A stretch of 64,000 nucleotides of DNA from Girardia tigrina (Eukaryota). The stretch's first letter is position 1. Each line of letters begins with the position of its first letter. The position numbers were made by a program, and so were the translations under genes. Below, in pieces: positions 1-64,000 of the stretch. The notes under the pieces are model-generated. The model was given only the letters and a program-made list of their open reading frames with translations, was not told the DNA's origin and made no database searches. The DNA lies in assembly GCA_001938485.1 (NCBI GenBank), contig MQRK01171719.1, positions 1 to 64,000 of the forward strand, read 5' to 3'.

Positions 1-552
1 TAATTGAATTAATTTAATTTTTATTTTTAATTAGTTTTTAAATCAATTTTAATTATTTAATTTTATTTTTAACAAATGGTTAAAAAAAATAAGTAAAAAT
101 GGAATCGCAACGCGACCAACACGTTTTGATGGAATATTTGAAGCCTTGCCTGCCTTGACTGTATTTGAAACAGGTATCTGCATTGAAAAATTTGTAAAAT
201 TTACATGTTTTAAAGAAACTTTTACTTTATTTGAACANNNNNNNNNNNNNNNNNNNNNNNNNNNNNNNNNNNNNNNNNNNNNNNNNNNNNNNNNNNNNNN
301 NNNNNNNNNNNNNNNNNNNNNNNNNNNNNNNNNNNNNNNNNNNNNNNNNNNNNNNNNNNNNNNNNNNNNNNNNNNNNNNNNNNNNNNNNNNNNNNNNNNN
401 NNNNNNNNNNNACAATTTTGCGGACTATGAAAATTTTCCATACAACATCTGTATAAAGGACATTGTTGAATTTTCGTAGGCATTTTCTCTTGAATCATCT
501 TGGACATTATTTTTTTTTTTGAATATATTCTTTTTCGAACTGGTTTGTTTAT

Positions 553-683
553 AATCATTGTAAAATTCGAAGGACTTAATCAAGAGAACACCATGATGCA
601 GAAGAAAAGACTACTTCGACGATAAACTACATATTTTGTCAGATGGAGTAAGTACATTAGCTCATGGATATTATCTTTTGTGA
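553..683 (+). pseudogene. Protein-primed DNA polymerase B (Polinton-type), frameshifted C-terminal fragment
   Basis: Translates (with frameshifts) to CKIR..LNQENTMMQKKRL/FDDKLHILSDGVSTLAHGYYLL*, matching the Polinton pPolB C-terminal pattern K.ALS..DDKR.IL.DG..TLA.GHY. Confidence 0.7.
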
Positions 684-945
684 ATGATATACTTGTAAAT
701 ATTGTACATATGTTAATAAATTTTTGTTGAAAATACTTGTCTTACACCTATCTTTATTCATAACCTTGTAAAAAACAACTTTTATTTTATGTAACATTTA
801 AAATATAAAATATAAAAATATATAACATACAAAATATATAATATAAAAATATATAACATATAAAATATAACATATAAAATATATAATATAAAAAATATAT
901 AAGATATAAAATATTCAAGAGCACATTACGTTGAAATGTTAACTT

Positions 946-1020
946 AATGAATGCAATACATTAACATGATGAATGCAATACGTTGACATGATGGACGCAA
1001 TAAATTGAAATGATAGATGC
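946..1020. repeat. ~22-bp tandem repeat (ATGATGAATGCAATACRTTRAC), 3-4 diverged copies
   Basis: Direct reading of the repeated units. Confidence 0.75.
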
Positions 1021-1110
1021 ATGACGATATCTCCTTGGATACAGCCATGTTTTGAATGGTTGATATGATTACATAGTATAATATCATTTTATTATTTATA
1101 TTATAATATA

Positions 1111-1157
<47 letters not shown>

Positions 1158-1336
1158 TAATTATATTATATAATATTTGCACACATATTGTGCGTATGTT
1201 CGAAAAAGCACTATGTATTGATGTTTTCGAGAATCTAAGATCATATTCCAACTATTAACCTATGGGTTACTATACATGTGATCAGACAGATTTTCGATAT
1301 ATTGATTGCTTCATCTTATATACCCTGTGGGCATTC

Positions 1337-1510
1337 GGCCTCACTTTACACTATATGTATGTTCTTCCTCACTTTACACTATATGTATGTTCTACCTCAC
1401 TATATGTATGTTCTGCCTCACTTTAGACTATATGTATGTTCTGCCTCACTATATGTATGTGTTGCCTCACTTTAGACTATATGTATGTTTTGCTTCACTT
1501 TACACTATAT
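1337..1510. repeat. Minisatellite (CCTCACTTTACACTATATGTATGTTCT and a shorter 21-bp variant), ~7 units
   Basis: Direct reading. It explains the repetitive ORFs at 1278-1518. Confidence 0.9.
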
Positions 1511-1659
1511 TATATTAAAACATGAATACATTACACTTTGTACAATTGTGAACTTATTGATTTCATACATTTGCACATGTATAGTATTGATAAGCACATA
1601 TGTATCCTAGATAGCCTGCCCAGGCAGAATTGATTTTTTTTGCACATTTTTGTGTAATT

Positions 1660-1755
1660 TTGATGGTTTTTACGTGTTTTCGATGATTTTAAGGTATTTT
1701 TCATGATTTTAAGGTGTTTTTCATGATTTTAAGGAGTTTTTCATGGTTTTTAAGA
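1660..1755. repeat. 20-bp tandem repeat (TCATGATTTTAAGGTGTTTT), ~5 copies
   Basis: Direct reading; the units align at 20-bp spacing. Confidence 0.9.
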
Positions 1756-1844
1756 TAAAATTGATGGTTTCTAAGGTGTATATATAATATAATATATAAC
1801 ATAGTATAATATCTAATATTAAAATGTTACATATCATGGTTACG

Positions 1845-2250
1845 GTAACCATGGNNNNNNNNNNNNNNNNNNNNNNNNNNNNNNNNNNNNNNNNNNNNNN
1901 NNNNNNNNNNNNNNNNNNNNNNNNNNNNNNNNNNNNNNNNNNNNNNNNNNNNNNNNNNNNNNNNNNNNNNNNNNNNNNNNNNNNNNNNNNNNNNNNNNNN
2001 NNNNNNNNNNNNNNNNNNNNNNNNNNNNNNNNNNNNNNNNNNNNNNNNNNNNNNNNNNNNNNNNNNNNNNNNNNNNNNNNNNNNNNNNNNNNNNNNNNNN
2101 NNNNNNNNNNNNNNNNNNNNNNNNNNNNNNNNGCTAAGGTGATCGCGGCCGTTGCCATGGTAACCGTGGCCGTTGCTAAGGTGATCGCGACCGTTGCCAT
2201 GGCAACCCCGCGTGGTAACTGGTTACGTAACCATGGCAACCACGGTAACT
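1845..2250. promoter_or_regulatory. Tandem array of RFX X-box-like palindromes (21/42-bp period), partly hidden in a gap
   Basis: GTTGCCATGGTAAC 2151-2164, GTTGCTAAGGTGAT 2172-2185, GTTGCCATGGCAAC 2193-2206, GTAACCATGGCAAC 2227-2240, and GTAACCATGG 1845-1854 at the other edge of the gap. The motif match is direct; function is inferred. Confidence 0.55.
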
Positions 2251-2653
2251 AGGGACGACCCCCCCCGGGGGGTAGTGCCGCCGAAGGTACATTTCTCCCC
2301 TACTAAATTAATTTAAAATATAATATTAAATAAATATTAAAAAACATTATTCAATAAATAATATGTTTATACATTTACGACATTATGGTTTTGACGGGTA
2401 AAACTTTCAATGTTTTATTATATACTTAAATAAATTATAACTTGTACTAAACAATTTTTATTAATAATCTTAACTCGCAAAAGTTATTTTAATAAAAAAA
2501 TGAACGATTCCTTAATACTTAAGACAAATCATCGTTTTTAAATCATCTTTTTTAAAAAAAATCAACCTCAAAATAACACTTATCCACCAACATCGACGAT
2601 TACCATGTAAAGTTTATTATTATATTTTTAAATAGAATGTTTTCCTATCAATG

Positions 2654-9765: not shown

Positions 9766-11005
9766 TTGGAAAATATAGTACGTCCAAAAGAAACAATATA
9801 ACTTTATTGTATCGCGGTCATGAATTTTTGTTTCATAGAGAACTGAGGAATGGGTCACGCGTTTGGCACTGTGCGAAGAATTGCAGTTGTATGCGCAAAG
9901 CTAAAATTGTGGCACGTGATCTTGTAATTGTTGAAAACAACAATTCCTCAACACTCAAACGAAGGTAACATAAGTTACGGTCTGGCTAGACTAGCTAATG
10001 GAGAAATTAAACGAAGGCTCGAGGATACTCTTGCTACACCAGGTGCAAAACAAGCTTCAGTCACTTCAACTCTCGCTGATCCTTTTTTGCACGCATTACC
10101 TAGGAAAACTACTTTATCAAGAGCACTAAGGAAATACAGACAAAAATGGAACGCCCACGGAGACACAGCTTTGCCTCTGATTCCAAACAATCGCAATTTT
10201 AGATGGCAGAACGCTTTAATCACTTCGTTCAGTTTGATTTGGGTCTTGGTGTATATTGTATTATTATACTTGGATGTCACGAGCTCGTCAACGGCTTGGT
10301 ACGTGCGTCCGTGTGGCTAGCAGATGGTACATTCAAGACAGTGCCAGACTTATTTTTCCAGCTTTACTCTATTCATTTTCAATTTATCCAGCTGCGTTAT
10401 ACTGTCTTTTACCAAATAAAACACTTGCCATGTACGACCGATTAATCCAGGAAGTAGTGCGTCTCATTCCGTGTGCAGCACCAAGAATTATTCTTACCAA
10501 TTTTGAAATGGCAGCAATGGGTGCATTTCAAGAAATATTTCCTGATGCTCGTACTACAAGCTGCTATTTCCATCTTGCCCAAAGCGTAATACGAAAGGTA
10601 CATGTGGTTGGACTGAAAGTGGAATTTGAAACTAATAAAGATGTATGTATCGGTGTTCGTTGTCTTGCTGCCCTATCTCATGTAAAAGTAAAAGATGTTA
10701 CAGAGGCCTTCAAACTGTTATCAGACTCGATGCCGGCAATTAATAACATTGACGAGGTGCTGACATACTTCAATCACACTTACATCCGAGGACGTCGCAT
10801 GCGTGGTCGTGGAGAAAACTACAAACCTGCCTTATTTGCAATTGAAACTTGGAATTAAATGCAGACGATTGGCGATGGTGTAGCAAGTACGAACGAACAA
10901 CATTTGCGAAGGATGGCATAAAAAGTCTACAGTCGCTGCTACAATGTAGTCACCCAACAATGTGGCGTTTCCTTGACTGTCTGCTTATGGACTACATGAA
11001 GCAGA
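9756..11005 (+). pseudogene. MULE (Mutator-like) transposase with N-terminal FLYWCH finger, frameshifted
   Basis: LLYRGHEF..RVWHCAKNCSC (FLYWCH); WLADGTFKTVPDLFFQLYSIH; YCLLPNKT; TNFEMAAMGAF..FP..TSCYFHLAQSV; YFNHTYI; TNNICEGWH..CSHPTMWRF. Confidence 0.92.
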
Positions 11006-23331: not shown

Positions 23332-25612
23332 CATGGACTACGGCACATGACACGAATTGAAAACTCCAAATAATTTACCACATGACGCGGGACGAATAAA
23401 CGATAGTTGCAACTGCCACTTGAGTGTACTTTAATCTAATTCCCCATTGGGCGGATTTGTAGTGAATTACTTGCATAGTTAAAGTTTGACCTTTGAATTA
23501 ATCATTTTTTGAAGAAGCAACTCATGGTTAACAAATGCTCTGCATTCAGCTGTACTTGTGTGTAAAAAGAAAAAAAGTATCAGGTAATAGCTTTCCTAAG
23601 TTTCATCACTATCTAAGCGAATGGCTCAAGCGATTATCTCTAGTTAATTTTTGTCCAACATCCAATTCTCGTATATGCCATATGTATTTCGTTGAGAATG
23701 ATTTTACATATTCTAGAATGGACACAAATACAACCCGAAAAAGAAAGAAACCACAACATCTCACAAAGAGATATCTCAATGGAGAAGCAGTCCTATTTAT
23801 ATTCCAAAATTGTCCTTCCTATCTCACTCAACAATCCTCATCAGAGCGACCTTCTACAGTGACATCTCAATCTTGTATTGACAATGATAATATTCACCTT
23901 CGCAGTACATTGAAGATCTCCAAAATGAGAATGCATTTCATCTCTTGAGAATCTAATAATGAAGGGGATTTCATGCAACACACTGCTTCGCAAATTTTTT
24001 CAAATTCCCAATATTTCTTGCAATGTGTATTTCCTTATATTTTATACAGAAAGTGATGATCCTTCTGTATTGACATCTGTCAAAACCACAACCCAGCTGC
24101 AAGTATTCATTTGTATTCGCGGTGTTTTTTATCTTGCTACTGAAATTCGTGCATTTCTACCAAATGGCTAAATACCTCATCTGTTAGAGTTTTGCAATGT
24201 ACTGCTTTTCTACGGATAATTTGGTTATGAACGCTCATTCAAAACCATTCCAGTGGTTGCAATTTGCTATCACTTCTCCTTACTTCTGTCTTAAACATAG
24301 CGAGTATGACGCTTACAAATCCATTATCAACTTTGCCCTTTAACCACTAAAATTATCACATTAATGGAAGTATTTCCACTCTTTAACCCAATTTGGCTTC
24401 AATTTATTTTCCACGAGTATAGCTTGCTATCAAACTTCATCCGACCAAGACGTATCGTGTTTCTCACATAATGAAACATTGTAGCGCTTGTTTCAGAAGT
24501 TATGATCTTCTCCTATTATTTTTCTCTTATTTTTTTGACTCCACTGATAATGTAAAGGATATTTTCAATACTTTCGAGAGAGGAAAGCGTATATCACGAC
24601 CTCATTTTTCTGATAATTCATAACATTTTACAGTGGATTATTCTCACATTCATCAATTGCAGCTTCGGGTATCTGGAAAAGCAGTGAAATTAGCTCACAA
24701 ACTATCTGCGTCCATCATGTCTTTTTAGCCATCCAAAAAATCACTGTAAAATTTTCTGCCGCGATTTTTCATCCTTCTACATCAAATACTCTAAATCAAT
24801 ATTCCATTTACCTTCATCCACCACGTCAAGATTTGGCTACAACGGTATTCTTTCGCTCTTTATTGTCATAACGTTTTGTAGTATTATCAATGCAAAAACT
24901 CCTAACAAAGAACCTCAAAATGCGACATTGAGACAGTGTTCATCATGTTCATTGTTATAAAACTCCACGAGTGAAATTGACATTCAATTTCAAGAACTGT
25001 TATACATGGTACACGAATTCTTTAATAAAATTAATCGTAGAGTATCGTACCCGCCGTCAGAGCTGGTATTTGATAAATACATTCGTTGCAGGACAAATGT
25101 TTTCTGGTGTTACAGACTCTACCAATCTTACCAAGCTTCGTATTAACGCCTTCAATTCGCGTATTCTCTTTGTGGAGATCATGGACGCTATATCTTTAGG
25201 TAAGAACTGTGTTGGACGATTGAACTGCGAAAGTGGTAATAATATCGTCAATCCGATTGTGTGAAAGTTGTTCAACTGCTACACAAAGAACTTGATTTCA
25301 TTATTGAATGCTAGCTACCAAAATCTGGCCCGGAAAATAGCGAAATCGGGCTAATCTTCCTGTTAACTTGTAATTACTTTAAAAATTGTGCGCATGTTAC
25401 ATCAAAATATAATTTTTAAAAAACTTATTTCAAATTGAGATTTGTCGTTATTAAAAGAAAAAGCAAATAAATCACCATTGTAAAGAACACAATAAATTGA
25501 TTATAACTGTATTTTTCTTATGTAGAACGTATTTGAAGACTAAAACGTTAACATTCATATTAAATGAATGCCCACGTCATGTGGTAATTCCAGTCATCAC
25601 GTGTAGTCCAGG
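23332..25612 (+). mobile_element. Degenerate P-element-superfamily (THAP) transposon
   Basis: Inverted termini CATGGACTAC/GTAGTCCAGG with inner TTACCACATGACG repeats; THAP domain MVNKCSAFSC..W..RICHMYF..EAVLFIF; THAP9-like KAVKLAHKLS..AAIFHPST. No TSD seen. Confidence 0.85.
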
Positions 25613-51645: not shown

Positions 51646-52940
51646 TTGGGTTGAGGAATAAGTTCCCGCCGTTTTTTGAAAAATTAAAATTTTATTTTTT
51701 AACAAAAAAGTTACTACAAATTAATCACAAATATAATCTCCGCCATTGTTCACGACTTCTTCCAATCGTTCAACGAGTTTTTCAATGCCTCTTTGGTAGA
51801 AATCGCCCGGTCTTGATTCGAAGAATTCAGCAAACCAAACTTGCAGTTCTCCATCACTGTTGAACGAAACACCACTCAAAGCGTTAGAAAGCGAACGGAA
51901 AAGATGAAAATCAGATGTAGCCAAGTCAGGTGAATACGGAGGGTGCGGTAATACTTCCCAACCAAGCGTTTGAATGGCTTCTTTTGTCATTCTGGCAATA
52001 TGAGGACGTGCATTGTCGTGTTGCAAAATAACGCCATGATGTCGATCCGGATGTTTTTGTCTTATAACGGCGTTGAGTCTATGCAGCTGATGATCATAAA
52101 GTTCTGCGTTCACTGTTTGTTTTTGAGGAAGCAATTCATAATGAATAATCCCTTCCCAACCCCACCAAACGCATAGCATTGTCTTTCGTGGATGAAGATC
52201 CTGTTTTGCTAGCGGTGTCGATTGTTCTTCTCGGCTACGCCATTCTTTGCGCTGTTTCATGTTGACATACAGGCACCATTTTTCTTCACCCGTTACAATT
52301 CGATAAAGAAATTGTTGGTTATGACCGTGAGTAGAGCGATGACGGGCAAGCAAACTCGCCGAAATTGTGGATCGCTGGTTTATTTTATTTTCGGTCAAAA
52401 GATGTGGGACCTAAGCTCCCACTTTTTGAACTTTTCCCATTGATTTCAGGTGGTTCACGACAGTTTTTTGATCATAATCCATTTGTTCCGCCAATTCTCG
52501 AGTGGTTTGATGCGCGTCTTTATGCAAAAGTTTGTTCAAACGCTCTTTATCGAATTCATTTGGTCGTTCTGAACGAGGTGCATTCTTGAGGTCAAATTTG
52601 CCAATTTTAAATTTTGCGAACCAATAACGAGCGGTTCTATCAGCTATAGCACCTTCTCCGTATACAGCACAAAGCTCTCGGGCAGCGTCAGCGGCTTTGG
52701 CGCCTCAATTATACGCAAACAATAGATGGTGTCGGAAATGCTCATTTTGTCGACTTGACACTCCATTTCAATGGTCTAAAAATCGACAAAAATTAATCTG
52801 AATAAAAATATGAAATACACCATTTTTTAGAGCAAAACAATAGCTTTCAAATAACATATAACAATACATCAAAAAAATTGATTTAAATATTAAATTGATT
52901 AAAAATTCAAAAAACGGCGGGAACTTATTCCTCAACCTAA
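51646..52940 (-). mobile_element. Full-length mariner element (1295 bp)
   Basis: TIRs TTRGGTTGAGGAATAAGTTCCCGCCGTTTTTTGAA with TA TSDs. Confidence 0.97.
51721..52766 (-). pseudogene. mariner DD34D transposase, inactivated
   Basis: MECQVDK/EHFRHHLLFAYN*...; *VPHLL (WVPH motif mutated to stop); IVTGEEKW (first catalytic D>E); HDNARPH; HPPYSPDLATSDFHLF. Confidence 0.95.
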
Positions 52941-54386: not shown

Positions 54387-57300
54387 TGTAACACGCGAAA
54401 AGTTTGTTTTCAAAACACTGTTTAATTGATAATTCAAACAAAATATTTATCAAAAAAGCTTATATTAAATATTTCAAATAATTAAAATATCTAATATCCA
54501 ACACTCCCACCAGCTTCGTCCTCAGAAGAATCTGAATCCACGAGGTAATCATTTCGATAAGACGGTCTTCGTCTTTCTCTACTAGTCCTACTGTTCAATG
54601 ATTGTTCCTCTTGTGTTTGATTGTCTGGTAGTGATGTGGTTTCCCCATATTCATATAGTATGACTTGGAATTTTCAACAAAGTCAGGCTATCTAGGTCGA
54701 ATTCTGCGATGTGTCTTGGACCGCAAAATCCGTTGCAATTTACTAGATATTTCCTTTTGATCTATTCTTTTCACGACAACACCCTTGGCCCATTGATGTG
54801 TAAATGATGTACTGTTTTCCGGTTTTATCCACACTAATTGATTCTCAACATAATCTGGATTTCCACAAAACGGTTCCTTTTCTTCCAATTATATCTAACC
54901 CTATGGTCAAATAGCTATACAGCGCCGTGCTTGGTGTTTCTTTTCCTTCAGATGGAGTGTTATTATACCACCATAAGGCTTTCAATATGCTAATATTTGA
55001 TCTGGACGCAATTTTTTTGATTGCTCTATCATTCCTTTCTATTATTCCGTTGCAGTTAGATCGATTGATGACACTATACATGACTCGAACGTTCCACTTT
55101 TCCATTAGCTTGTTGAATTCTACCAAATACAATGTGGCATAATTATCGATAATTAGTTCCTTGGCAGACCCACGTTAACAAAACAAACTTAAAAATTCTG
55201 AGATAATTGATTTGACGTCTTCAGCCTTAATTAATTTCCATATTGCAAAGCGAGAAGGACCACAATAGATTACACTTAAAAATTTTTGTTGATTGTACTT
55301 TGTAAGCAAGTCTTGTCCAGTTTTCGTTGACGCTCAGCCTACCGGTTTTCCATTTTACGGGTGCCGGATCGATGGATTGACATTTTTGACATCTTGAAAT
55401 CAGATCCTTGATATCCGCGTTTGATACACCTATTCCTTGCTTCGCACATAGATATCGCATTCTGTTTGCCCCTAAATGACACTTATCATGAAGTTGCTCC
55501 AGCTTGAGTAGATCGTCCGTAACCATTAAAAAAACAATTGCTTCTTTTTAATTGTTTTTGGATTCTTGTCAACTCGTTCGCCTTTTTATCTTCGCTATTA
55601 ACAAACTCAATCTTCAAATCGATTTCATACTCCTGACACAGCTCCTTGATCATCAATAGTCTTCGTTTTATTAAAAGCTCAGATGAAACCTTGGTATTTA
55701 ATTTTTCGCGATCTGAGATTGTTGTGGTTACCCACGAAACTACTGATTTATTATCCGATTTTACTATCACACTCCTTAAACCCCATTTCACACATAAGTT
55801 TAAACCATTTACAACTACTTCTAGTTCTGCTACATTAATATGTCTAGAATCATCAGTTTTTCTCAACCATGATGCATCCTCGATTATGTTCCCTTTGACT
55901 TCTAACGCCACACCAATGGCTATTGAACTTGCGTCGGACCATATAATACCTTCCCTGCAGTCATCAATGGCCCATAAACCTCTGCAATGATCACTCGCCC
56001 TCACTGTCTTTAAAACCCATTTAATATTCTATAATAATTCATCATCTATCTTTTTATCGCACCTTCCCTCACTAAGTCGTTTAAGATATGAACATGACTG
56101 ACGTAGCCAACTAGCTACCGGATGTATTTCTACTAATTGTCCACATAACGAATATAACTCACGACGGAAAATTGATTCCACATCCAACTCATCCCTTATC
56201 TGATTATTCCTCTTCCATCTCACTACACGTTGGTCCATAAAGACTTTCATTCTTAAAACTCGAACTTCGTTGGCTTGTGACAGATTTTCCGGTTTTTTAC
56301 ATTTGAGACCGAAGTTATTGAACACTTTTTCTACTTCTTCAACAGAAATGAAACTTTCATTTACATAAATATCATCAATATAAGAGTTGGTATTTTCACG
56401 CATCCTGGTGTCAGAGTTTAGAATCCACCTGACGATTTCGGTCATTATAGTTAGTGCAATGTTTAAACCAAAACCCATCCTAGTTAAAGCATATTTCTTG
56501 TTGTTAACGATACAAGATTGGTAACGCCACATCTCCTTATGAACATGAATCTACATGTACGCCTCTGACAAATCAAGCATTGAAAAAGTCGAACCCCTAC
56601 GTCACCAATCGCGGAGCTTTTCTAAACATATGTCCGCAGAACCACTATAAACGTCCACGTAATTGTTTAATTTTCTAAAATCAAAAATGGGTCTTATCTT
56701 GGACTTATTAGCCTGTAATATTTCAAATATGGGTATGGATCCCATCGATTTACCCATTTCTTTCTCATTGTACTCGATTGGATAACCCTTTTCTTCCCAA
56801 CCGTCTAAAATTTTTAACGTTGAATTTTTCAACATCTTTTAATTTGTTGTCCTTAAAAATTGACTGACGATTCGGAAGATGACTCGGAGCCTCACTTTTC
56901 CAATTCCATTTAATCGACCAATTTTCCTTAAACTCAATTTCAAAATTATGATTTTTTATACTAACAAGATGTGCATACGATGCAGTACAACTCAAGTTAC
57001 TATTTATCTCTTTAATTTTTTCTTCGCCGAACTCAATAACACCCTTATTAATTCTCACACCGCCCAATTTACATATGACATCCATACCTATTAAGATCTG
57101 TAGACCATACGGCAAATGTTCCATGACCGAACATTCCACCCTAATGATCCTGTCATTTATATTCAACCACACTTCACCCGAACCCACTCTAACACCCTTT
57201 CCATTCGCCAAAACCATACTTTCTCCGTCAGAAAACAACATACAATCTCTAACTAACCATTTTAAAACAACCGTTTTCGAACAACCCGAATCAATCAACG

Positions 57301-58251
57301 CTATGTCTGACCTGTCATTTACGGTGACGATCATCGTCGGCAACGCCTGCCACTGTGAAGGGAGAGAGCCGGCACCTACAAACTCCCCTGTTCGTTTCCC
57401 GACCGACAATATTTTGCGATATGACCCGGTTTCTGACATTTGTAGCAAATTGTTTGTCTGTTTGATTGCCACTGAGAACCTTTATGATGATAACTTTCCT
57501 TCGATTTAGTGTCTCTCTCACGATGAACATAGGGTCCTTTCTGAAGATTTGCTCTGGGTTTATCGAGTTTTCCCTGACCTCCGGAACTCCCTATTTCTTT
57601 GTTGTTGTTTCCGTGTTGTATTGCGCCATTGAACCATGTAATAAACCACTTTTAATCCCCAAATACCTGCGGATATACTCGATCATTTCGGCCAGGGGTT
57701 GGTCACCGGCCCGTTCCAAATCCACCTGCAACTCAAAAGGCAGTTCAGCCATGAAGGTAGCCTTTGTTAGATCGTCGACCTTTGTTGCAAACATCTTCAC
57801 CTAAGACGCATATTCATCGATAGTCTCGCCCTCGTGATACTGTAAATTTATCAATTGACTGTACACAGAATGTCTAGTCAGGCCGAACGAATTATTTAAT
57901 ATCTTGAAGAACCGATCGTAGCTGCTTTGCGTCTTCTCGTTCGATTCCATGTAGATGTTCAGTGCAACCTCTGATAGTAAAAAAGGGAGATACGGGGCTG
58001 GATCAGTAATCTTCTGGATTTTCATGACCATTTCAAATTTCTTCTGCCAAATCTCGAAGCTGTTGCTTCCATCGAATTTTTCCAAAAACTCCAAAACGAT
58101 TTTCATATCATTCATTATAACCGGATAGCTTGTAACACACGAAAAGTTTATTTTCAAAACACTGTTTAATTGATAATATTTAAACAAAATATTTATCAAA
58201 AAAGCAATTATATTAAATATTTCAAATAATTAAAATATCTAATATCCAACA
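54387..58251 (-). mobile_element. Complete, degenerate compact Ty3/Gypsy-like LTR retrotransposon (3865 bp)
   Basis: LTRs at 54387-54503 and 58131-58251 (TG..CA), near-TSD CTATT/CAATT, purine-rich PPT GGTGGGAG next to the 3' LTR, domain order gag-PR-RT-RH-IN. Confidence 0.95.
54504..58115 (-). pseudogene. gag-pol (gag, aspartic protease, RT, RNase H, integrase) with stops and frameshifts
   Basis: FDGSNSFEIW (gag), ALIDSGCS (PR), KIRPIFDFRKLN / LTRMGFGLN / SYIDDI (RT), WSDASSIAIG..HINVAEL (DIRS-like RNase H), H..CHLG..CQKC and NGIIER..YNNTP (IN). Confidence 0.93.
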
Positions 58252-61385: not shown

Positions 61386-64000
61386 CGTATTACGAACATT
61401 TAAACAAGTAACGCTTGAACTTTTATTACAATCACATTTAAGATCATTATGACTCTCAGAAAGTCTTTCATCGTTTGTTATCATTCTAATTGGTTTTCTT
61501 ATTTCTGTTTTTAATCATGATTATTCGAACAATTTTTCTGAGTTATTTTTTAAAATATTTAACCTCTAAAAAATATTAATTAAAAAATAATATTTTTTAC
61601 AATTTCTTAATAAATCCCAAAATATTAAAAATGCATTTAATTTAAATTTTACTAAAAATTATTAACCTTAATTTTAATTTGTGAAATTATAAATATGAAC
61701 TTATCAAATGATTATTTTAATTATGGTCAAATAGTCAATGACTTTAAATTTAAATAAAAAAATACCAATTTCCATCTGGGTGGGAGAATCACCATTCTAA
61801 ATTCAACATACTTAAATCAATATACAGCATCCATACATTTACACGTTCAAACAATTTAAAATATTCCTCACATCCCCCTCGGTTTAAATTGCTTTAGCCA
61901 TTCTACATTTCTGATCAAGATCCTGCCATCCTCTAGTTGTATCTCATAACTTCTTTGTGTCTTTGTTTCATGATTTTAGCTGGTCCCATATAACGATCAT
62001 CATCTTTTGATGGGTTAAATTTCTTTATCACGACTTTATCTCCGATCTGAAATATTCGCTTTGTTTCAATTATATTTTTATTTTCTTTTTCTCCACTTTT
62101 TCCTTCTGTTATAATTTTCCACCAATCTTAGTTTTCTTCCGAAGATTATTTCGGCTGGAGATATTCCAGTTGTTGCTTGAATTGTACCGTTTAATATGAA
62201 TTTTATTTCTGCCAACATTTCTCCCCAATCTCTGTGCATTTCATCCGTTAATCGTATACTTATGGCGTCTCTTATTGTTCTGAATTGTCTTTCTATGATC
62301 ACGTTAGTGTTGTGGTGATAAGGGTTTGAATAGACTATCTCCGTCTTAAATTTCTTCGTCGTTTCTTTAAAGAGTGCTAATTCGAATGTTTTCACTCTAT
62401 CAACGTATATCTCTTTTGGTGATCCTAATTTCCAAATCCATTTATCCAATAGTACCTTTCGTGTAGTCTTCTCGCCTTGGTGTGCTACTGCAGTCAAGCT
62501 GATATATCTACTAAATTGATCGAGTATTGCTAAAATGTATTCGTATCCATTCATAGTCCTTCTGAATGGTCCGCAAAAGTCCATGTAAATTTTTTGAAAT
62601 GGTTCGTCGGCAGATTGTTTAATGTAAACACATTATGTAAACACAATGTGTTTCTCTTTCGTTTTTGCCGTCAGCGTCTTCCTTTTCTGGCAGTTTTCAC
62701 AACTTTGTACGATTTTCTTTATCTGTTATCTTATTTCATACATATCAAAATCATCTTTTATGTAATTGTATACTTTCTTACTTCCTGCATGGCATAAAAT
62801 TTTATGTATATTTTCTATGAAGTCTGTTCTCTTCTTCATATGGATCCAATAGTTGTTATCTCTTGTCTTCACGATATTGTTTTTCAGTAGTCATTCTTTT
62901 GTCTTTCCCATTCTAATATTTTCTTTAATCTGTTCTATTTCTTCATCATTCGTCTGCCAAATAAACCCTTCTGAATCTTCTGTTAATTCTAGGATTCTAG
63001 TTTTCTATTCAGACAATCTTATTTTAAAAAAAATATTTATGGCAAACCTGTCTTGCAATTAACTGATTTTTATTAATAGGTCAGTTAAAATTCTAGTTTT
63101 AACTTTTCCTTTTTAGCGTCATCGTGCATTGTCTTTACACATAATTCACATGTATTTCTCGACATTTCGTCTGCATTGGTGTGTTTTTCGCTCTTGTCAT
63201 CCATCATCATGTCTAGTCCACTAAGGAAGTTAATCCAAGTTTGGAATTGTGGAGTTATTGGGTTCTTTGTTGTCATAATGAATGTGATGGCCTTATGGTC
63301 CGTTCTAGGTAGAAACTTCTTTCCGTATAAGAAATGTTTGAAGTGTTGGGTAAAGTAATAGATTGCCAATAATTCTTTTCTTGTAATACAGTATCCCAGT
63401 TCGTGTTTATTCATCTTGTGGGATCCATATGCAATTACTCTTTCCCTTTCGTATGCATCCTTCTGTGCCAGTACTGTCCCGATTGTATCAAAACTGGCGT
63501 CTGTATCCAGTATAAACTCCTTTTCGAAATCTGGATATGCTAGGATCGGTGTTTTTGTCATTTTATCTTTTAATGTCTGAAATGCTTCGTCACATTCCTT
63601 TGTCCATGTCAATTTTTTATCTTTATTTTTTCCACATAGCACTTCCAGTATTTTTGAATATTTTGCATAATCCTTCAAAATTTTCTATAATAGTTCATTA
63701 GCCCCAAGAAACTTCTTAAATGTTTAATGCTTGAAGGATTTTGAAATTTGTTGATTGCTTCAATTTTCGTTTTATCCGTCTCTATCTTTCCTCACGACAT
63801 ATCCTAAAAATTTAGTCTTTTCTACCATGAATTGACACTTTTCAGGGTTTATCCAAAGGCCCGATTCCTCAATCTTTTGAAATATGTGTTCGACTCGTCC
63901 AAAATGTTCTTCTTTGTCTTTTGCGAAGATCAGAATATCGTCCAGGTATACAACTGCTTCTTTTCAGTTTAATTCTCCTATCACTCTTGTCATTAGTTCT
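61386..64000 (-). mobile_element. Ty3/Gypsy LTR retrotransposon, 3' half (RT, RNase H, integrase, PPT, 3' LTR 61386-61872), degenerate; continues beyond the window
   Basis: VVYLDDILIF (RT), FILDTDAS..YCITRKELLA..RTDHKA (RH), H..CHAG..CENC and MDFCGP..DQFSRY..IIERQFRT (IN), PPT GAGGGGGA immediately before TGTGAGG. Confidence 0.95.
63005..63089. other. 85-bp insertion flanked by the 11-bp direct repeat ATTCTAGTTTT; second copy at ~53473-53560
   Basis: Direct repeats at 62994-63004 and 63090-63100; removing the insert and one repeat copy gives the continuous pol-like peptide KVKTRILELTEDSEGFIWQ. Confidence 0.9.

Follow-up and report, generated by a model that had tools for sequence, protein, structure and literature searches.

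The 64,000-nt stretch of Girardia tigrina DNA analysed here (the window) opens inside a mobile element that is already under way at its first letter and that ends at position 2304, raising the question of what kind of element ends there and what reads the repeated motifs close to its end. An earlier note had taken this end for a Polinton terminus carrying an array of RFX X-boxes. The end is indeed a Polinton terminal inverted repeat (TIR), as sister copies with 6-bp target site duplications (TSDs), a pPolB gene (PF03175) and hundreds of matching ends bear out. Ends that start with AG and a 6-bp TSD are hallmarks of Polintons, and these elements have both. The element boundary is sharply defined across the 30 copies compared, and the terminal 29-mer has 341 exact matches in the host assembly (control, 0), which comprises 1.43 Gb of AT-rich sequence in 255,254 contigs; a first look gave 2950 candidates for the element end, 40 of which were scored. 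Taking identity and function jointly, we think it fairly probable that the window end is the TIR of a Polinton of two element types, A and B, and that its array recruits host RFX together with NF-Y. The window copy is of type A because its positions 49 to 579 match the type A polymerase gene region, the matched stretch of L041 lying directly upstream of pPolB frames (Table 1).

The four X-box-type 14-mers reported near the end are all present, three of them starting exactly 21 bp apart as described, and the one at 2193 is a perfect palindrome. Their fit to the RFX consensus GTNRCC-N0-3-RGYAAC (PMC7077322, in excerpt) is less complete than had been thought: three of the four boxes match and the box at 2172 does not, whereas all four, with 2172 on the minus strand, fit another published RFX consensus, RTNRCC-N1-3-RGYAAC (PMC2375033). 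The boxes are not a product of chance, because among 5000 dinucleotide shuffles of positions 2133-2304, which hold three strict boxes, 58 gave one and none gave two or more; in the 61.7 kb beyond the element end there is no strict X-box. The visible part of a fifth unit, of the 33-nt repeat family D7, adjoins the N stretch. The motif at 1845-1854, on the far edge of the 278-N gap, had been counted as a further X-box. This proved wrong: in read-through copies TACTT-type letters come next, which rules it out as an array member, and it lies 0.68-2.0 kb from the end in 21 gap-free readings in copies as against 450 bp in the window. The array is longer than the window shows, as had been expected, spanning in sister copies from ~60 to a median of 387 bp from the end, where the last strong half-site lies (n = 66). 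As for the proposed C8/G6 hairpin, the run itself exists but shuffled sequences fold as well as the 55 nt at the terminus do (z +1.18), leaving a stable terminal hairpin unsupported. Between this run and the terminal motif, both of which are kept, sits a hypervariable 14-bp segment, which might encode the specificity of replication or of integration.

Table 1. Features of the window element end and of the other Polinton family of the host (positions refer to the window unless a locus is named).
Feature	Position	Strand	Basis or remark
X-box 1	2227..2240	.	fits GTNRCC-N0-3-RGYAAC
X-box 2, perfect palindrome	2193..2206	.	consensus match
X-box 3, asymmetric type	2172..2185	-	fits RTNRCC-N1-3-RGYAAC, not GTNRCC-N0-3-RGYAAC
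X-box 4	2151..2164	.	consensus match
Fifth unit, visible part, cut by N stretch	2133..2143	-	21-bp step beyond X-box 4
Terminal 15 bp of TIR, AGTAGGGGAGAAATG	2290..2304	-	common to types A and B
Host flank, candidate half of 6-bp target duplication	2305..2310	+	sequence; opposite end off contig
Hypervariable 14-bp segment, differs between sublineages	2276..2289	-	36 variants among 75 ends
C8/G6 palindromic run	2259..2272	.	sequence; present in 33/42 unfiltered ends
Short palindrome, near inner edge of TIR, not an X-box	1835..1854	.	sequence comparison across copies
AT-rich non-coding region, TIR to type A polymerase gene	580..1833	.	79-95% identity to L031, L041
5' part of type A polymerase gene region, N-interrupted	49..579	-	matches L041:2357-2761
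190-bp terminal unit, other Polinton family	L167:8215-8405, L169:4290-4480		C234723

Across 614 units, which come from copies of shared ancestry and are non-independent events, as copy counts are too, the consensus positions of the X-boxes are better conserved than the spacers: with mismatches allowed anywhere, the seven fixed positions have an entropy of 0.11-0.33 bits and the 7-bp spacer 0.74-1.47 bits. The degenerate positions of RGYAAC vary as the consensus permits, R16 being a purine in 610 and Y18 a pyrimidine in 603 units, a restriction that could partly reflect transition bias. Half-sites follow one another by 21 bp in 379 of 806 steps, and 565 steps are within 1 bp of whole helical turns while 241 are off phase, figures that rest on few unit lengths. 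The possibility that the repeat is a satellite unrelated to Polinton ends is ruled out by 42 ends collected through gene searches without an X-box filter, of which 37 show a strict box in the outermost 300 bp and 26 show CTGATTGG in the outermost 600 bp; three of the five ends without a box are, judged by eye, unrelated look-alikes. This is the only unfiltered set, and the ends used for the X-box averages of the shuffle test, for steps and phasing, and for half-site and Y-box distances passed filters that favour the array. Short contigs in sequencing runs with four other organism labels cover the arm at 80-99% identity. Four ends of another, unrelated Polinton family of the host contain no X-boxes, which contradicts the idea of such arrays as a general Polinton trait; judged from these ends, the array is specific to the family. 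Pattern scans of IMG/VR for X-box arrays gave 3 and 29 matches with no array among them, and 46 metagenomic loci of TBP relatives contained no strict box, a negative of little weight because the ends of these loci are mostly absent from the sequence. In one 40-kb viral contig of IMG/VR (L133:2997-3053), a 241-aa frame without a Pfam match is closely preceded by a pair of strict X-boxes at a distance of 43 bp from each other.

The flank consensus of NF-Y is CCAAT with RR upstream and CAG downstream. CCAAT boxes that match it are found in sister copies, farther inward from the end, none being present in the readable part of the window copy, and in 73 filtered ends the 10-bp CCAAT box occurs 1.74 times per end compared to 0.002 in shuffles. 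The two bases after ATTGG are pyrimidines in 162/162 and 161/162 cases, varying between C and T, and position +5 after the CCAAT box is likewise a pyrimidine (160/162), so that transition bias could account for part of this pattern too. An intact X half-site stands 24-25 bp upstream of 128 of 159 of these Y boxes. This arrangement tentatively resembles the X-Y module of MHC class II genes, which consists of RFX5 plus NF-Y and has a phase-dependent spacing (PMC4381081, PMC4374748, PMC4889920, PMC2278383, all in excerpt): in the array CTAGCAAC precedes CTGATTGG by 24-25 bp with both facing the same way, and by hand count the distance is 24 bp in the H2-E primers of PMC4374748 (in excerpt). The array differs in being built of tandem repeats and in residing in an invertebrate mobile element. 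The match in distance is suggestive only and may be a by-product of unit lengths, because the distance is set by these and because a second, loose half-site is found only 4 bp away from the Y box. The argument from MHC class II geometry is weakened as well, because in 90 of 159 cases the altered half-site adjoining the Y box remains compatible with the loosest consensus for an X-box. Half-sites next to a Y box are intact in 58/112 as against 135/144; as proof of exclusion by NF-Y this decay loses force, the variant fitting RRNRAC.

The host genome encodes NF-YA and RFX domains, one of which is RFX5-like and closest to RFX5 (PDB 8zjr, E 7e-17). One RFX exon is identical on three contigs (L126-L128), reflecting assembly redundancy or a recent duplication. 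The suggestion that the element may recruit RFX is partly supported, by motif constraint and by the fit across the family, and falls short in that the module named was incomplete, being RFX plus NF-Y rather than RFX alone. We are reasonably confident in predicting, from its motifs, that the array is a landing pad for both host factors. Work on planarians links the Rfx motif with cilia modules and NFY with open chromatin of neurons (PMC12660999, in excerpt) and finds an enrichment of CCAAT in promoters of gut and epidermis (PMC10558129, in excerpt), so that the motifs by themselves imply no link to the germ line. RFX binding to a viral inverted terminal repeat is already known: the D sequence of the AAV ITR is bound by RFX1/RFX3, as shown by EMSA, with an effect on expression (PMC5760533, in excerpt). 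There, as here, an RFX site lies inside a terminal repeat, the present one being predicted from sequence, but AAV has one short element of a parvovirus and the Polinton has a phased multi-box array with CCAAT boxes. HBV uses RFX1 at the EF-C site of enhancer I and NF-Y elsewhere in its genome (PMC7077322, in excerpt); those are single internal sites, in contrast to terminal arrays. In the literature searched we found neither RFX-bound Polintons nor TIR arrays of host factor sites in Polintons. A named pair of candidate host factors makes the activation of Polintons testable, and several hundred to a few thousand ends would scatter dense RFX/NF-Y clusters through the host genome.

Type A elements are 6.5-10.2 kb long and bounded, like type B, by TIR arms of 0.45-1.6 kb. 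Their order is TIR, pPolB, ORF2 (reverse), TBP-like, TIR, and some copies have a second ORF2 paralogue next to the other arm; the array lies more than 1 kb from the first gene. The polymerase matches PF03175 (E 2.5e-11), the pol copies in view all being broken with a longest frame of 621 aa. The TBP-like protein of 145 aa (PF00352, E 1e-14) is modelled with a TBP fold (pLDDT 93). For the C-terminal half of ORF2 a T7 gp2.5/Enc34-type ssDNA-binding fold is predicted (Z 8.3-8.8, rmsd ~3, 107-110 residues aligned), and its product is predicted to be an ssDNA-binding OB-fold protein, not a sequence-specific binder. Perfect 6-bp TSDs flank five type A copies (C224054, C184433, C216139, C212312 and C230143). 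We had first considered that a non-autonomous element with pPolB as its sole gene was being mobilised by the other Polinton family, an idea that was dropped after type B was found.

Type B came to light when the host assembly was searched with the 404-aa putative capsid of two metagenomic Polintons, L237 and L244. These elements, of 5-9 kb, have the same arms as type A, no polymerase in any copy examined, and the order TIR, ATPase, integrase, putative minor and major capsids, putative protease, TIR. The integrase combines rve (E 7.6e-13) with a chromo domain, and the ATPase is 56-68% identical to the L237/L244 protein, that of L237 passing Pox_A32. The capsid and protease labels are putative, based on size, gene order and weak hits: one member each of the 410-aa putative capsid family hits Capsid_N (E 0.009) and DJR-like (E 0.04), the family has no match in the PDB, and the best match of the protease is ASFV S273R (E 0.78). 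Three type B copies have perfect TSDs (C226144, C203575 and C222231), and a further one, C223974, has one at 5/6. Another end pair of the family, C228106, has both ends and no TSD; the tally over end pairs of the whole family is 8 perfect, 2 at 5/6 and 1 without. Most copies have stops or deletions. A 2-kb derivative without genes (L172:1706-3669 on C222998) has both arms, X-boxes and a 5/6 target duplication, resembling a third, MITE-like class.

The two gene sets stay apart. Our own overlapping loci, 269 in total, include 84 with A genes only, 57 with B genes only and none with both, and pPolB and integrase occur on the same element in 0/269 loci and in 0/9 gene-bearing copies with TSD-paired ends. 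The ATPase gene is followed by a TIR in 25/30 loci and by an A gene in none, the TBP gene by a TIR in 15/25 and by a B gene in none, and the protease end by a TIR in 8/20 and by pol in none; junctions without a TIR run into short contigs, N or unrelated DNA. Contig lists of A and B hits (187 and 138) have an overlap of 0, which is a weak test. Because the assembly is in pieces and scoring covered 40-150 of the 472-1940 candidates for each gene, the host may still contain an undivided master copy that is rare; one candidate, C185658, proved to be separate insertions. Common to A and B is ~1 kb of arm that the second Polinton family does not share. A tree built from 56 inner arms intermingles A and B, with 7 label changes of which at least 3 are forced, and places them in separate clades in 0/200 bootstraps; arms nevertheless cluster by type more than shuffled labels do (7 changes vs 19), and both arms of a copy usually group together. 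Genes split over two element types with common ends very probably amount to a two-segment Polinton.

On one contig each, L237 and L244 carry TBP, ATPase, integrase, capsid-like genes, protease and pPolB. L257 and L268 are likewise metagenomic Polintons that are undivided and bear a TBP-like gene, and one ORF of L237 resembles, by eye, a ubiquitin-conjugating enzyme. The B genes and TBP are 46-68% identical to their L237/L244 counterparts, the type A polymerase ~36% compared to 49-53% with two IMG/VR elements, and the gene order of A differs from that of these relatives. A and B are thus not a simple fission product, because the A polymerase is nearer to other Polintons than to L237/L244, and the comparison of sequences points to a polymerase swap in type A. 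Scans of IMG/VR for TBP-like and integrase returned no matches. A TBP-like label also appears in a figure legend on MELD viruses (PMC8502044, in excerpt).

Polintons/Mavericks (adintoviruses) have the same repertoire of pPolB, retroviral-type integrase, ATPase, protease and capsids between TIRs, the last two being putative here, and are described as one molecule of 15-25 kb that carries both pPolB and integrase (PMC6431247, PMC8502044, PMC11161782, in excerpt). In the present family these two genes lie on separate TIR-bounded elements of 5-10 kb. In bidnaviruses and the segmented Drosophila DNA viruses the segments share terminal repeats, and bidnaviruses are ssDNA viruses with parvovirus-type capsids and no integrase. 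Bidnaviruses are bipartite pPolB parvo-like viruses (PMC8502044, in excerpt), and in both groups a pPolB genome is likewise in segments (PMC8363768 for the Drosophila viruses, in excerpt). Complementary gene sets on molecules with common ends also occur here, as seen in genomic copies, but unlike bidnaviruses the two-type Polinton integrates with TSDs. We found no two-segment Polinton in the literature, in a search that left out most subscription papers and Repbase.

Based on our data we propose that A and B would complement each other in trans like two segments of a single virus-like genome, with A providing replication and B providing both integration and packaging. A would be unable to integrate alone and B unable to protein-prime alone, so that each likely uses the other's proteins and both need to be active in one nucleus. 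The 21-bp-phased X-boxes and the CCAAT boxes would bind RFX and NF-Y on one helix face, and this binding would open chromatin at all four ends. The common array could thereby serve as a shared enhancer through which the two segments become active in one and the same cell, and it may in addition be an accessory component of the origin used in protein priming; the adenovirus origin uses accessory host-factor sites. The TBP-like protein of the element may also adjust basal transcription.

Two other accounts of the array deserve attention. It could be a signal for packaging or replication that is read by one of the element's proteins, such as the packaging ATPase, the likeness of the array to RFX sites being incidental or secondary. 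Both types would need a shared cis signal near their ends, 21-bp steps dominate, the distance from the first gene suits such a role, and in adenovirus, too, the packaging repeats close to the end of the genome recur at intervals of two helical turns. We nevertheless regard this as unlikely, for two separate host consensus motifs are matched down to their degenerate positions, ORF2 is predicted to bind ssDNA through an OB fold rather than specific sequences, and the other Polinton family of the host bears an ATPase without having the array. That the array is a neutral minisatellite amplified in the TIR, resembling X-boxes by descent from one chance copy, would agree with a unit number that varies freely between copies and with tandem duplication, which by itself explains the 21-bp spacing. 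It is highly improbable, given 32 shared unit types in which the consensus stays fixed while the spacers and the neighbouring 14 bp change, and given that the array also occurs in the runs of the four other organism labels.

The division of genes might likewise have arisen otherwise. If A and B were classes of deletion derivatives of an undivided master, still present or recently lost, they would never have been segments; internal deletions are common, the gene-less 2-kb copy included, the assembly is in fragments and undivided relatives exist. Yet no junction links A to B genes, the partition is functionally clean and is kept in many sublineages, and A departs from the relatives in gene order and in the affinity of its polymerase, which makes this account quite unlikely. 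About as unlikely, or marginally more so to our minds, is one-way parasitism, in which A would be a plasmid-like pPolB satellite with the ends of B, using its integrase and capsid, while B replicates via the polymerase of another Polinton or moves by cut-and-paste. Candidates for A genes (1375-1940; TBP-like, 1751) exceed those for B genes (472-703) two- to four-fold, the A polymerase has a different affinity, and the host has other pPolB-bearing Polinton families; but B lacks a polymerase in every copy examined, shares its arm with A and not with the other family, and has repeatedly exchanged arms with A.

Polintons are defined by polymerase and integrase together, and a two-segment Polinton would offer a natural example of a segmented genome among integrating, virus-like dsDNA elements, kept over many sublineages and with undivided relatives on hand for comparison. 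Entries of repeat libraries that have only a polymerase or only capsids would then not have to be debris. As a tentative extension, which in its full detail is rather doubtful, we put forward a bipartite integrating polintovirus whose replication/transcription segment (pPolB, SSB, TBP) and integration/virion segment, at separate chromosomal sites, would be co-activated via a shared RFX-NF-Y enhanceosome at their ends, laid out with the X-Y geometry known from MHC class II promoters; if true, this geometry would be far older than vertebrate immunity.

Ends of the X/Y family are nested in, or lie next to, copies of the other Polinton family (L173:1803, L172 and L180), and that family terminates at both ends in the 190-bp unit of Table 1, itself bounded by inverted AGTAGT termini. 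Elsewhere in the window are a fragment of a MULE transposase (10238-10858; PF10551), a weak THAP domain below cut-off (23535-23948), a fragment of a mariner-type transposase (51721-52260; PF01359), and pieces of LTR retrotransposons (56029-57509 and 62078-63561) with DUF7047, a weak aspartyl protease, integrase and RNase H.
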